Shown here one piece after another: positions 455-22,112 of a stretch of DNA of 27,082 nucleotides. The notes below the pieces were generated by a model. The model did not search any database. It worked only from the letters and a program-made list of their open reading frames with translations, and was not told where the DNA came from. How positions within the stretch are numbered: the stretch's first letter is position 1; each line of letters begins with the position of its first letter. Location: the IMG/VR virus record IMGVR_UViG_3300016478_000199; one strand, written 5' to 3'. Both the position numbers and the translations under genes were made by a program. This DNA comes from an uncultured virus (IMG/VR IMGVR_UViG_3300016478_000199) (taxonomy: Duplodnaviria; Heunggongvirae; Uroviricota; Caudoviricetes).

Positions 455-546
455 GCGCCCTATACGCGCCCTAAACAATCGCCGGACGTCTACAGCCTTG
501 CTGCGCTGTGCTGTCCGGCCTGTTGTTGCCCTGATACAGGATCAGG
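455..546. repeat. bipartite att-like element copy 1 (GCGCCC-TATAC-GCGCCC ... CCTGA-TACAGGA-TCAGG)
   Basis: Hexamer direct repeat at 455/466 and inverted repeat at 530-546; same geometry as 7 other copies. Confidence 0.9.
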
Positions 547-549
547 TAT

Positions 550-906
550 TCAATCCACGATTGATACAACGCTCATGCCCTTCACCACCGCCTTGCCGCC
601 GGACGTGAGCGGGTACTTGCCAGACCCAAGCGTCTTGATCGCCTTTACTGTGGTCGGCGTCAGGATGCTGGCCTTGATCTCTTCCAAGTTGATGCCATAG
701 ACCCGCTCAACGTATCGCAGCAGCGCGTGCTCTGTGACCACTGGCTCTTTCATGGCCTCGCTCAAGCGGCTGTTCAGAACAGCAATGCGATCTGATACTT
801 CTTTGTGCTCGCGCTGCGCACTGATCATAGCCTCTCGCTTTACTTGCTCGTCGGCTTTCGCTTTGCTCAGTTGCACCTGCAGCGCTTTAAGCTCGTGCGG
901 ACTCAT
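550..906 (-). CDS. phage protein with N-terminal coiled coil and C-terminal 'VTEHALLRYVERV' domain
   Basis: Heptad-like N-terminal half; HALxRYxER motif typical of small phage proteins; ATGA overlap with the upstream gene. Confidence 0.75.
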   Translation of the reverse strand: MSPHELKALQVQLSKAKADEQVKREAMISAQREHKEVSDRIAVLNSRLSEAMKEPVVTEHALLRYVERVYGINLEEIKASILTPTTVKAIKTLGSGKYPLTSGGKAVVKGMSVVSIVD

Positions 907-1334
907 TCACCACCCCGCTCAGCCCGTACCCAGCCAAGCGCGCGCATGGCGGCCTCGTCCAGGGCTTTCATGTCGTTGTCGCCCTCGCGGAAAAACGCCA
1001 CCAGCGTCTGCGGCCCGCAGCGCTTCTGGATAGCCATCACCAGCGACTCGGCTTCCGGCCTGTGCTCAGGCAGGATGTCACAGAAGAACGCCAACATGGT
1101 CGCATCCGTTGGGATCTGCTCAATGCGCGCAGCGGCCAAGCCCTCAGCCGCACTAAGCCGGCGCACCAGATCGATCATGACTTGGGGAGACGCTGCAGCA
1201 ATGAACTCACGATCTTCTTTGTCGTAGCCAGGGAACGCGTCGCCGTCGAACCAAGGTTCTTCAGGCCCTTTGCTGATCGCAGCCTGGGCAGCAGCCACCA
1301 GCGCGTCCAAATTCAGGTTGATTTCTACTACCAC
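903..1334 (-). CDS. Ead/Ea22-like phage protein
   Basis: 'DREFIAAASPQVMIDLVRRL' resembles the Ead/Ea22 'DAEFIAAANPxxVLALL' motif; start moved to GTG 1334, which follows an AAGGAAAGGAAG RBS and a promoter. Confidence 0.6.
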   Translation of the reverse strand: MVVEINLNLDALVAAAQAAISKGPEEPWFDGDAFPGYDKEDREFIAAASPQVMIDLVRRLSAAEGLAAARIEQIPTDATMLAFFCDILPEHRPEAESLVMAIQKRCGPQTLVAFFREGDNDMKALDEAAMRALGWVRAERGGE

Positions 1335-1381
1335 CTTCCTTTCCTTGCCGGGCGATGCCCGGCTTCTGTCGTTTTGCCTGA

Positions 1382-1411
1382 ATTGTACTTGCAATGCTCA
1401 GATATGAGCAA
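1382..1411 (-). promoter_or_regulatory. sigma70-like promoter TTGCTC-N18-TACAAT overlapped by palindrome TGCTCA-TATC-TGAGCA
   Basis: Read directly on the minus strand. Confidence 0.55.
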
Positions 1412-1413
1412 GA

Positions 1414-20859: not shown

Positions 20860-21167
20860 TTGTCGCCGCCCAGTGAAGCAATGACGCCTGGCGGCAGGTG
20901 CTCAGGCTTTGCGATCAGCTTTGCGCGGGTCTGCCCGGACAGGTAGCGATCAGCGGTGCTCCAATCGATGCCGTAGTGCCGCATCAGGCGCTGTCTGCTC
21001 CATCCGGCAAAATCACTCAGCGCACGCAGTTCGAGGATCTGCGAGTCGTTCAAGATGGTGCTTGGGCCACGAGCCGCGCCTGTCGCTTTCGACTTTCGAG
21101 CGGTAGCGGTCTGGTCGATGCGCGCACCGCCACGGGCAACGGTTGCGTAGGACAGACGAATGCTCAC
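20856..21167 (-). CDS. putative HTH DNA-binding protein
   Basis: 'LNDSQILELRAL...GWSRQRLMRHYGIDWSTADRYLSG' HTH pattern. Confidence 0.65.
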   Translation of the reverse strand: MSIRLSYATVARGGARIDQTATARKSKATGAARGPSTILNDSQILELRALSDFAGWSRQRLMRHYGIDWSTADRYLSGQTRAKLIAKPEHLPPGVIASLGGDK

Positions 21168-21400
21168 CGAGAACCATCCAGGGCAGCGCGCTGGAGATCC
21201 TGCAGCCGCGCCTTGCGCTCGGCTTTGCGCGCCTTGCGCTCGGCTCGGCGGCCGGCGTCGTCCAGCATCAGATTCATGTCATAGCCAGGCTCTAACTCCC
21301 GGCGTCGCTCAGGCATGACTACCTTGTGGCCGGATGCGCTGAGCACGGTAGCCAGGGCGATTGCGGTGGCGCCTGCGCCGATCAGGGCAACGCGACTCAT
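21164..21400 (-). CDS. hypothetical protein (78 aa)
   Basis: Coupled overlaps; hydrophobic N-terminus and basic C-terminus. Confidence 0.6.
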   Translation of the reverse strand: MSRVALIGAGATAIALATVLSASGHKVVMPERRRELEPGYDMNLMLDDAGRRAERKARKAERKARLQDLQRAALDGSR

Positions 21401-21591
21401 GCCGGCACCTTGATGCGCTGCAGGAACATGATCCCGGCAGCCAAGAATGCGCCGAATGCGGCACTGCCCCAGTCGCCAAGCAGCACGTTCTGCAGAACCG
21501 CGCCAAGCACAAAGCCAACCACGATCAGGCCGGCATCACGGCAACCTAGCCAGTGCCAAACCTTGCTGAAAAAACCGCTGAGCTTTTCCAC
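21397..21591 (-). CDS. small two-TM membrane protein
   Basis: Two hydrophobic segments; GGGGAGAG RBS. Confidence 0.6.
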   Translation of the reverse strand: MEKLSGFFSKVWHWLGCRDAGLIVVGFVLGAVLQNVLLGDWGSAAFGAFLAAGIMFLQRIKVPA

Positions 21592-21634
21592 CCTCTCCCC
21601 TTACCGCTGGTGCGGCGTATTAGGTTTTGCTCAA

Positions 21635-21988
21635 TTATGCGCTTTGCTGTTGCTGTGGCGCAAGCGCTCGGCGTTGCTCGTGCAGGTCGAGGATTCGCCG
21701 ACGCAGCCCATTGCTTGCGTTATGCCCGAAACGCTCTTCGACCTTGGCCAGGTAGTCATTGCGCTGGGCCTTGTTCGGGAGGTCGAGCACGTAGGCCGGT
21801 TCCACGTCCATGCAGCAGCGTTTCAGGGCTTCCACGGCAGCCGCGCCACGCTTGGCCTCGATCAGCGCGAAGAACTCGACGCGCTCGAAGTGCGGCTTGG
21901 CCAGGACATACCTGGCTTCGCATTCCTGCCTCCAGGCTTCGCTGCTGCTATCGACCTGCTGGCCATCGTGCAGGGTGACGGTATTCAA
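21635..21988 (-). CDS. conserved phage hypothetical protein
   Basis: 'VDSSSEAWRQECEARYVL...RG..A.E.L' pattern, internally duplicated; AAGGA RBS. Confidence 0.65.
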   Translation of the reverse strand: MNTVTLHDGQQVDSSSEAWRQECEARYVLAKPHFERVEFFALIEAKRGAAAVEALKRCCMDVEPAYVLDLPNKAQRNDYLAKVEERFGHNASNGLRRRILDLHEQRRALAPQQQQSA

Positions 21989-22020
21989 GCGGCTGTTTCC
22001 TTGATCAGATTTTTAGTTTT

Positions 22021-22112
22021 GCGCCCTATGCGCGCCCCACAACTCACAACCAATACGCAAATGCTTGTTTTCAATAGCATTTCCACCAATGAGCACCAGA
22101 CTGGCAATCAGG
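22021..22112. repeat. bipartite att-like element copy 8 (core CCAGA-CTGGCAA-TCAGG)
   Basis: GCGCCC at 22021/22032; core at 22096-22112; same 92-bp geometry. Confidence 0.85.

Follow-up and report, generated by a model that had tools for sequence, protein, structure and literature searches.

Composite cassettes resembling phage attachment sites lie between accessory gene modules in a family of temperate myoviruses

Introduction

The attachment (att) sites of lambda- and P4-type phages, exemplified by the KplE1 attL with its PintS promoter, combine a core, in which inverted half-sites surround a centre of 6 to 8 bp, with arm-type direct repeats that lie one helical turn apart and tens of base pairs from the core, and they are served by a cognate integrase with an N-terminal arm-binding domain. 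An element of the same build was found in eight copies in a 27,082-nucleotide stretch of DNA from an uncultured virus of the class Caudoviricetes (IMG/VR record IMGVR_UViG_3300016478_000199), hereafter the window, by which we mean the whole stretch. Each copy, here called a cassette, comprises a dyad of two half-sites around a 7-bp centre, or spacer, and a pair of GGGCGC boxes farther downstream; as at lambda/P4-type sites, the core at the att sites of related phages corresponds to a tRNA anticodon arm. The order of core, arm sites, and gene is also that of the KplE1 attL, where IntS is reported to repress its own promoter (PMC2951348). In contrast to those att sites, however, 1 to 10 extra copies per genome are spread along the accessory arm, each with its own 7-bp centre and with arm-type sites on one side only.

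Other described systems resemble the cassettes in part. The PeSLs of T4-type phages, as presented in PMC2839356, are ~100-bp composite intergenic cassettes in hyperplastic, nonessential regions, where they bound insertions, deletions, and replacements, and their authors speculated in that report on the involvement of a specific DNA-binding protein. The PeSLs characterized there carry consensus sigma-70 early promoters and are homology driven, whereas the cassettes described here have no sigma-70 consensus, are built from the phage's own att elements, and belong to temperate phages. The pdif modules of Acinetobacter plasmids likewise comprise many tyrosine-recombinase sites with a variable centre that accompany shuffling modules in accessory regions. 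In the account given in PMC6449649, however, these sites are 28 bp long with an 11-6-11 layout, employ host XerC/XerD, include no arm sites, and alternate in orientation, whereas the cassettes have a 5-7-5 layout with arm-type boxes, a single orientation, and a proposed phage-encoded recombinase. Integrons, which have been reported in phage genomes (PMC9892861), share with the cassettes an array of gene units with a recombination-type site abutting the stop codon at the end of each one, in a fixed orientation relative to the genes. The cassette, however, is no attC (it has no R''-L''/L'-R' organization, and dyad and boxes are not complementary), the integrase is P4-like with an arm domain rather than an IntI, and the units comprise 1 to 8 genes. 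Within tDNA, tyrosine integrases are also reported to use sublocations with flanking symmetry for crossover, one of them being the anticodon loop (bioRxiv 10.1101/2020.11.02.365908). Our searches of the open-access literature, which covered this phage group and the combination of arm-type sites with gene cassettes in phages, turned up no description of multiple att-like cassettes inside a phage accessory arm.

Phage mosaicism is usually explained by recombination, illegitimate or guided by short homologies, on which selection then acts. Here, the two elements of the att of a temperate myovirus family recur at module boundaries where relatives differ. We assign a probability of about 0.5 to the reading that the cassettes are attL-like integrase-docking sites bounding exchangeable modules, and not a locus address code, as had been proposed in the original prediction made from the window. 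If the integrase acts on the cassettes, they would amount either to a virus-encoded system of site-specific module exchange or to a circuit through which the integrase controls the accessory genes, and the family includes cultivable members suited to direct testing, the Pseudomonas putida phages Jeremy and Dolphis.

Eight composite cassettes in a phage accessory arm

The window originates from a freshwater metagenome. It constitutes the accessory arm of a phage whose relatives include the Pseudomonas phages Jeremy and Dolphis and Aeromonas phage ST4, temperate myoviruses that encode an integrase and have genomes of ~90 to 95 kb (~90 to 96 kb across the family). All credible open reading frames (ORFs) of the window lie on the minus strand, and the sites are therefore described on that strand, the gene strand. 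The sequence CTGA-N7-TCAG occurs seven times in the window, compared with 0.43 expected, and none of 100 shuffles reaches seven; the 17-mer CCTGA-N7-TCAGG, with at most one mismatch, occurs nine times, compared with 0.95 expected. Six exact dyads (at 530, 10993, 12133, 15264, 16815, and 19033) and two with one mismatch (at 20227 and 22096, reading CCAGA...TCAGG on the plus strand) make up the eight cores of the original prediction, which were recovered at the claimed places with exactly the eight spacers listed for them. A ninth match, CTGA-N7-TCAG at 18417..18433 within ORF 18340-18903, has neither the conserved flank nor a GGGCGC partner and is probably a chance occurrence outside the system. 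On the gene strand, the eight dyads read CCTGA-N7-TC(A/T)GG followed by GC(G)TC. All share one polarity, with the asymmetric flank (gacGCC on the plus strand, GCGTC on the gene strand) and a GGGCGC-N5-GGGCGC partner constantly on the same side.

The partner motif GGGCGC-N5-GGGCGC occurs exactly eight times in the window, always on the gene strand, compared with 1.26 occurrences expected even when one mismatch is allowed. Dyads and box pairs correspond one to one, at gaps of 58, 58, 58, 58, 58, 56, 57, and 58 nucleotides (nt), and this one-to-one pairing at a fixed gap defines the unit as one of ~92 bp. On the gene strand, the composite cassette consists of a stop codon, YCWGA-N7-TCWGR plus GCGTCA, a linker of 56 to 58 nt, GGGCGC-N5-GGGCGC with the two boxes 11 bp apart, and a start codon, and it fills the intergenic gap.

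The cassette across the phage family

Jeremy and Dolphis have nine exact GGGCGC pairs each, with a dyad at seven of the nine, and ST4 has seven pairs, five of them with a dyad; no pair was found in Touem01. Ten complete IMG/VR relatives have 3 to 12 pairs each, compared with 0 to 1 for reversed-pattern controls. All the DNA examined yielded 133 cassettes, 103 of which are distinct and fall into 92 clusters at 85% identity. The gap measures 56 to 59 nt in 87 of the 92 representatives and 46 to 50 nt, about one helical turn less, in the other 5, and within family genomes the element is restricted to accessory arms and the int/att region (int being the integrase gene). A scan of IMG/VR for the GGGCGC motif found a dyad at 57 to 59 nt in 29 of 130 cases and at another offset within 150 nt in only 5. 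The dyad-less matches are mostly due to chance, as a pattern of 15 specified bases is, by our own arithmetic, expected ~100 times in such a collection; for that reason, the presence of an integrase gene on 4 of 28 dyad-less contigs, adjoining the motif in only 1, says nothing about integrase adjacency. About a quarter of the 92 representatives stem from a scan in which ATA between the boxes was a requirement, and the box-spacer frequencies are biased accordingly; the unbiased subset (n = 65) gives the same pictures for the central W bases of the half-sites and for the gap as the full 92. In that subset, the box spacer contains A-T-A in 32 of 65 cassettes, whereas 9 of 15 att-region pairs have AGGTC.

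The original prediction described the flanking half-sites as conserved, and a common pattern is shared by all eight sites in the window; across the family, the half-sites are degenerate, YCWGA-N7-TCWGR. The central W bases of the left and right half-sites combine as T/A in 34 cassettes, A/T in 17, T/T in 22, and A/A in 19 (Fisher p = 0.52). This mismatch in the middle of the stem in 41 of 92 cassettes, without covariation, indicates that the dyad is read as duplex DNA and not as a hairpin. The outer base pair of the dyad is a lineage-wide character: C..G throughout the class-A genomes, T..A in ST4, G006, L220, and L221, and mixed in G007. Such a change in concert at all sites of a genome is as expected for a trans-acting reader.

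The setting of the cassettes is similarly regular. For 65 of 72 cassettes, the stop codon of the upstream ORF falls between -30 and +9 nt relative to the start of the dyad, 25 of these stops being the TGA of the left half-site and 10 lying inside the spacer, and the next start codon lies at most 25 nt past the boxes in 31 of 74 cassettes. The linkers are moderately structured (mean z-score, -1.55; z < -2 in 33 of 92), and 21 of 92, including 5 of the 8 in the window, resemble intrinsic terminators by strict criteria. No sigma-70-like -35/-10 elements were found at any cassette (3 in 20 kb, compared with 4.3 expected).

Cassette elements at the attachment site

The 510-bp interval between int and the next gene of Jeremy contains AAAGA CTACGAA TCTGG GGGTCAGAGGTTCGAATCCTTTCGGGCGCGCCA, the 3' part of a tRNA from the anticodon arm onward, amid ten GGGCGC boxes of the same orientation that are spaced at 11 to 12 bp within ~420 bp. 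In G001, an IMG/VR provirus, ARAGORN identifies tRNA-Arg(acg) at 1554-1630, and the anticodon stem-loop of this tRNA, CCAGA CTACGAA TCTGG followed by GGGTCA, fits the cassette pattern (per-position chance, ~1.5e-5); it is one of ten dyad-pattern matches on its strand, eight of the others being cassettes. Dolphis, G003, and G004 have the same arrangement as Jeremy, with a tRNA 3' part beside int, and G005 has atGGA TTGTGAT TCTGG together with the 3' part of another tRNA and a near-exact box pair ~128 nt beyond. The core-like sequence of ST4, tgAGA CTTTTAA TCAGA, lies 56 nt upstream of a box pair, and its 7-mer is the anticodon loop found in the phage-borne tRNA-Lys(ttt); that of G007, cACA CTCAAAA TCTGG, lies 57 nt upstream of a box pair, and its 7-mer is the anticodon loop of the phage tRNA-Leu(caa). 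Under the spacer frequencies, these two matches have P values of ~5e-4 and 8e-4, respectively. GGGCGC boxes with an 11- to 12-bp period surround the att core in Jeremy, Dolphis, G003, G004, ST4, and G007, and a box array is also present in G006. The original analysis of integrase crossover sublocations in tDNA is said to be that of Williams (2002).

ST4 and G007 appear to use tRNA-dependent lysogeny. As in the system reported in PMC10865867, their short core equals a tRNA anticodon loop, the phage carries a tRNA of that isotype, the arm-type sites are paired, and the integrase is lambda-like. That system was described there in actinobacteriophages and concerns att rather than intergenic cassettes, whereas ST4 and G007 are phages of Gram-negative hosts, that of ST4 being Aeromonas; no attB was seen for them. 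In ST4 (record positions ~32893-33254) and G007 (64807-65158), a complete phage tRNA gene lies 38 to 48 nt past the box pair, and there is no tRNA 3' part at the core. The att cores of G008 and G009 were not found, and no tRNA fragment lies beside their int. In these two genomes (G008, 20044-21355 and 74335; G009, 45154-45585 and 5388), a cassette with a short gap of 46 nt resembles the P' arm of a Jeremy-type attP, and their att site may lie ~53 kb from int.

A conserved arm-binding domain and two classes of catalytic module

Each of 10 relatives tested encodes exactly one protein with PF00589. In the integrase of Jeremy (40686-41990), this catalytic domain is combined with the arm DNA-binding domain PF13356. 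Residues 1 to 95 are 63 to 83% identical to those of Jeremy in all nine others, whereas the remainder of the protein divides the relatives: identity to Jeremy is 57 to 77% in G001, G003, G004, G005, G008, and G009 and 12 to 21% in ST4, G006, and G007. BLASTP from residue 100 onward gives 20 to 24% identity between Jeremy and the latter three (E, 0.45 to 3e-4), which are 56 to 68% identical to one another. This distribution implies that the integrases are mosaic, with a domain swap in which arm-site specificity would have been retained. The invariant GGGCGC box parallels this history, in that it goes with the invariant arm-binding domain across the swap of the catalytic module. A conserved arm domain joined to two unrelated catalytic modules provides a natural experiment on the evolution of heterobivalent integrases.

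Breakpoints between relatives cluster at the dyads

Mosaic relatives of the window were obtained as contigs of four runs that contain 27 to 39% of its words; one of these, X6, is labelled RNA-Seq, is probably DNA, and was compared as contigs. The relatives X3 and X5 do not have 12151-13499, and homology ends at 12150/12155, adjoining the dyad at 12133-12149. At the dyad at 16815-16831, homology is lost at 16813 in X5 and at 16827 in X3 and X6. Farther along, X5 has 264 extra bp at 20243|20249, and X2 has 746 bp in place of 20158-20249. Breaks also occur away from cassettes, at 3554/4753, 10414/10794, 19238/19467, 15111, and 15689.

Across 13 to 14 genome pairs, 29 ends of high-scoring segment pairs (HSPs) fall within 60 nt of a cassette. 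Sixteen of these ends lie in a 29-nt interval around the dyad, where ~4 were expected, compared with 7 in the upstream flank, none in 46 nt of the linker, 2 in the boxes, and 4 downstream. The enrichment of HSP ends at the dyad has a P value of 1.7e-7, or 3e-4 when each event is counted once. The polarity of the breakpoints fits crossovers at either edge of the 7-bp centre, although the exact nucleotide of a crossover is uncertain, as the conserved half-sites can stretch alignments by a few bases. In a hyperplastic accessory region, cassettes form the bounds of insertions, deletions, and replacements that distinguish close relatives. The original prediction had likened the cores to lambda-type core sites, and this likeness is supported: half-sites with a 7-nt centre form the presumptive att crossover site in relatives, these phages encode a tyrosine integrase with an arm domain, and breakpoints cluster at the dyads.

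The module missing from X3 and X5 consists of a 73-amino-acid (aa) ORF and a gene for an N6/N4 DNA methylase (12366-13400); the relatives join 12150/12155 directly to 13500. This module is placed between the dyad and an upstream stop codon, and no cassette belongs to it. A degenerate cassette was noted at 3449-3569, reading TCTGA TCTATAG TCACC on the gene strand; it has no GGGCGC pair, and a strong hairpin of the terminator type (GTCACCCTA...TAGGGTGAC and a T-run) comes after it. Near it, relatives replace 3554-4753.

Proposed integrase docking at module boundaries

In the reading that we favour, the dyad would be the core-type end of an attL-like site, its inverted 5-bp half-sites and the 7-bp overlap-equivalent between them being bound by the C-terminal part of the integrase, and the GGGCGC boxes would be the arm-type sites for the N-terminal domain. 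A heterobivalent tyrosine integrase would bridge the two across a bent linker of ~58 bp; a comparable spacing separates the core and the P' arm sites in lambda. Standing between accessory transcription units, the cassettes would mark the points of module exchange, gain, and loss, with crossovers at or near the edges of the 7-bp centre. The spacer itself, with ~4 free positions, would be largely unconstrained and drift, so that the differences among the eight sites would reflect no designed address. It is an inference that the integrase binds the cassettes, that it and not short-homology recombination makes the crossovers, and that downstream transcription is affected at all.

Several points weigh against this assignment. 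As the 27-kb window contains no recombinase, no integrase, and no att site, the link to the integrase rests on relatives (64 to 82% aa identity, one gene). Two nearly unrelated classes of core-binding and catalytic module would both need to read one CWGA core, and another conserved protein might read the dyad instead. No GGGCGC boxes lie beside int in G008 and G009, the att core of G006 was not found, and the distances from core to boxes in Jeremy-type attP are ~115 and 126 nt, compared with 58 nt in the cassettes. The cassettes always point to the downstream gene, to which the boxes are often close, and many linkers, including most of those in the window, are terminator-like; a purely transcriptional element would explain both linkers and orientation equally well. 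Finally, short-homology recombination with selection for intact genes would also produce junctions at the dyad edges. Module shuffling and a regulatory role could both be true together.

A more specific version of docking, possible but put forward only tentatively, is that the integrase runs an integron-like exchange system, in which strand exchange at the edges of the 7-bp centre would excise modules, insert them, or swap them among relatives that co-infect a cell or reside in it. Centres shared by several cassettes (TGCTGAA and TACGGAA) would then be common exchange points, with the partner chosen by overlap and without a per-locus address. Tandem accretion of elements at one att site was considered and rejected: it would leave identical overlaps, and the spacers instead differ. 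The identity of overlaps between partner sites that characterizes lambda/P4-type recombination was not found either, as the eight spacers of the window differ from one another and those of orthologous or one-flank pairs mostly differ.

Regulatory alternatives

Among the competing explanations, the one that fares best, although we regard it as rather doubtful, holds that the integrase, alone or with an excisionase, docks on boxes and dyad to repress or insulate accessory promoters, with recombination incidental and the spacer uncontacted. The invariable sense orientation, the proximity of the boxes to start codons and of the dyads to upstream stops, the frequency of terminator-like linkers, and the drift of the spacers would all follow, and the predominance of A-T-A between the boxes of cassettes, as opposed to AGGTC at att pairs, hints at an additional promoter constraint. 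There is a precedent as well, in that core-type and P' arm-type sites of IntS are reported to overlap PintS and to repress it (PMC2951348). Regulation alone, however, does not predict that junctions cluster at the dyad edges with none in the linker, no sigma-70-like -35/-10 elements accompany the cassettes, and the spacers TGCTGAA and TACGGAA recur in unrelated contexts.

An unlikely explanation is that the cassettes are PeSL-like terminator-promoter units served by factors other than the integrase. The dyad would then be the operator of a dimeric regulator and the boxes a phage promoter or operator, shuffling would result passively from homologous or short-homology recombination, and the resemblance to att would arise from the control of the int/att region by the same regulator. 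The PeSLs described in PMC2839356, with a stem-loop terminator and an early promoter in ~100 bp and with ORF shuffling by recombination in hyperplastic regions, are a close formal match. Insertions and deletions between cassettes in close relatives, the AraC-family regulator encoded in the arm, and a dyad core that is unchanged across two unrelated classes of integrase catalytic module are all compatible with this possibility, whose weight comes chiefly from the last of these points and from the strict orientation of the cassettes towards genes. The cassettes, however, have no sigma-70 consensus, and searches of five genomes for a sigma factor, a sigma-54 activator, and a phage RNA polymerase found none of them, with no positive control for the polymerase. 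Moreover, a PeSL-like origin leaves unaccounted for the identity of the dyad with a tRNA anticodon arm at att, the coincidence of the 7-mers of ST4 and G007 with anticodon loops, and the tracking of the arm-binding domain by the boxes. Sigma-70 region 2 was found in none of five genomes. The idea of a sigma-54 promoter drew on the GG..GC spacing of the boxes and would have made the dyad an upstream activator site; it was rejected, PF00158 being present in none of five genomes.

Spacer variation and the address code

The original prediction proposed that the unique 7-bp overlaps confine recombination at a site to the allelic counterpart of that site, which would give position-preserving mosaicism and prevent internal deletions. 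All eight spacers of the window do differ, as claimed, but this carries no information, because chance alone gives the same outcome. On the gene strand, spacer position 1 is Y in 89 of 92 representatives, A occupies position 6 in 77, and all 92 have R at position 7; the entropy is 10.5 of 14 bits, and about 4 of the 7 positions are free. Under these family position frequencies, two spacers are identical with a probability of 0.0013, the 28 pairs among eight sites are expected to include 0.037 identical ones, and all eight differ with a probability of ~0.96 (0.998 under uniform bases).

Cassettes from different genomes were compared by the homology of their 300-nt upstream and downstream flanks (blastn, E < 1e-8), both flanks being available for 84 of the 103 distinct cassettes. 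In the 11 pairs with both flanks homologous, spacer identity is 0.90 (0.89 at the free positions 2 to 5), that of the two linker halves is 0.76 and 0.82, and 8 spacers are identical. When only the upstream flank is homologous (40 pairs), these values fall to 0.51 (0.38 at positions 2 to 5) and 0.50/0.53, with 4 identical spacers; for the 14 pairs with only the downstream flank homologous, they are 0.59 (0.50) and 0.66/0.63, with 3 identical spacers. The 3,189 pairs with neither flank homologous give 0.41 (0.27) and 0.49/0.48, with 11 identical spacers. A swap of one flank thus usually changes the spacer, which is kept in 7 of 54 one-flank pairs, contrary to the address model and its expectation that spacers are conserved by locus while flanking modules are exchanged.

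Individual loci illustrate this variability. For example, the locus after a conserved 501-aa methylase has six spacers among relatives (CAGTAAA, TCGGCAG, TCGTCAG, TCACCAG, TTCTGAA, and CACTAAG), and the methylase gene upstream is 70 to 85% identical at the DNA level. In G003 and G004, the downstream module is shared and the proximal linkers are 93% identical, yet the spacers match at 1 of 7 positions. In the nine most recent one-flank swaps, those with a shared flank of at least 81% identity, 7 of 7 positions are kept in three (all at the ADP-ribosyltransferase-upstream locus of the Jeremy group), 5 to 6 in two, and at most 4 in four. Conversely, when both flanks are orthologous, 39 of 44 free positions are identical, somewhat better than the linker, which suggests that spacers are not wholly neutral.

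Identical spacers also occur at unrelated loci. The 11 such cases without flank homology compare with 4.2 expected; two are pairs of ST4 and G006, and the rest are mostly TGCTGAA and TACGGAA. The ST4/G006 spacers were rejected as conserved addresses, since they are coding (...TCT GAC TCT TAG and ...GAT TGT TAG), being the last codons and the stop of syntenic genes; the upstream genes at these loci have 51 to 53% aa identity (tblastx). TGCTGAA is found in 6 of 92 representatives, compared with 0.18 expected (window 10998-11004, G003, G004, G008, L088, and L101), and TACGGAA in 4 of 92, compared with 0.24 expected (G004, G008, G009, and L078). The cassettes with these spacers have unrelated flanks and linkers; a nested CTGA half-site is contained in TGCTGAA and not in TACGGAA. 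TGCTGAA precedes a giant ORF in the window and in G008, whereas G009, 93% identical to G008 downstream, has TAGTTAA there, and G003 and G004 have TGCTGAA with no giant ORF. The possibility that the module common to G003 and G004 is an element with TGCTGAA on alternate sides was rejected at the nucleotide level, where only its 5' boundary is clean.

An address code is, on this evidence, very unlikely, and the comparison across relatives, which the original prediction had itself set as the test, largely refutes it; that eight 7-mers are all different is a caution against reading a design into a chance outcome. A spacer is kept while one flank changes at 16813 in X5, in Jeremy and Dolphis (TGCTGAG), and in G008 and G009 (TCCTCAA), spacers are slightly better kept than linkers at fully orthologous sites, and a sensitivity to overlap mismatches has been reported for this type of integrase (PMC10865867). 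Against these points stand the differences at orthologous loci, even between the close relatives G008 and G009 upstream of one gene, and the recurrence of identical spacers at unrelated loci, which speaks against an address for each locus. Nor do unique overlaps appear to block deletion between sites, as modules between sites with different spacers are gained or lost in close relatives. Less probable still is that the dyads are RNA or cruciform hairpins acting at transcript 3' ends as terminators, processing sites, or stabilizers: their position at or just after stop codons, the geometry of a 5-bp stem with a 7-nt loop, and a mean folding energy of -3.7 kcal/mol for the 17-mer would suit such a role, but the mid-stem mismatches without covariation, GCGTCA in place of a U-tract after the dyad, the fixed and helically phased distance to a downstream DNA motif, and the lack of any Rfam match contradict it.

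The individual cassettes and their neighbours

All eight cassettes of the window lie on the minus strand. Cassette 1 (455..546) has the dyad CCTGA TCCTGTA TCAGG at 530-546, a 58-nt linker with a hairpin and a T-rich end (472-529), and GGGCGCGTATAGGGCGC at 455-471; the upstream ORF stops at 550-552, and the next start is at 432. Cassette 2 (10918..11009), situated between the gene for the AraC-family protein (11018-11956) and a 1,763-aa ORF (5615-10906), consists of CCTGA TGCTGAA TCAGG at 10993-11009, a 58-nt linker, and GGGCGCCGGTAGGGCGC at 10918-10934. The dyad of cassette 3 (12058..12149), CCTGA TCACAAG TCAGG at 12133-12149, is separated by 58 nt from GGGCGCGCATGGGGCGC at 12058-12074, and the TGA of its left half-site is the stop codon of ORF 12145-12366. 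Cassette 4 (15189..15280) carries CCTGA GTTACTA TCAGG at 15264-15280 and GGGCGCTGATAGGGCGC at 15189-15205, with a canonical intrinsic-terminator hairpin (15214-15237) and T-run in the linker. A sigma-70-like promoter (TTACTC, 17-nt spacer, TATAAT) lies on the minus strand at ~15125-15160, downstream of cassette 4 and before ORF 14874-15113; cassette 4 is the only one in the window trailed by such a promoter, and a similar one follows the orthologous cassette of Jeremy.

Cassette 5 (16740..16831), with CCTGA CAGTAAA TCAGG at 16815-16831 and GGGCGCGTATTGGGCGC at 16740-16756, also has a terminator-like hairpin in its linker. The linker is 56 nt long in cassette 6 (18960..19049; CCTGA TAAATAA TCAGG at 19033-19049 and GGGCGCACATAGGGCGC at 18960-18976) and 57 nt long in cassette 7 (20153..20243; CCTGA CTCCAAG TCTGG at 20227-20243 and GGGCGCCAGTAGGGCGC at 20153-20169), where the half-site TGA is the stop of ORF 20239-20502. 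Cassette 8 (22021..22112) comprises CCTGA TTGCCAG TCTGG at 22096-22112, a 58-nt linker, and GGGCGCGCATAGGGCGC at 22021-22037, and its dyad lies inside the 3' end of ORF 22071-23093.

The products encoded in the arm include several DNA methylases, a NUDIX protein, an acyl carrier protein, the AraC-family regulator, and the product of the 1,763-aa ORF. The latter (5615-10906, minus strand) has no Pfam, PHROG, or PDB-sequence match; its N-terminal ~170 residues are 36 to 48% identical to the start of proteins annotated as "ADP-ribosyltransferase" in Jeremy, ST4, and others, which it exceeds in length by ~550 residues. Scans of IMG/VR and metagenomes with the 501-aa methylase as the query retrieved no near-identical relative, the best having 79% and 82% aa identity. 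Four genes of the DNA methyltransferase type are concentrated in 17 kb (1414-3099, 12366-13400, 15282-16718, and 16838-18343); among their products are a member of DUF4942/phrog_6263 and a fusion with a ParB-like nuclease domain. This richness in methyltransferases suggests a heavy investment in anti-restriction.

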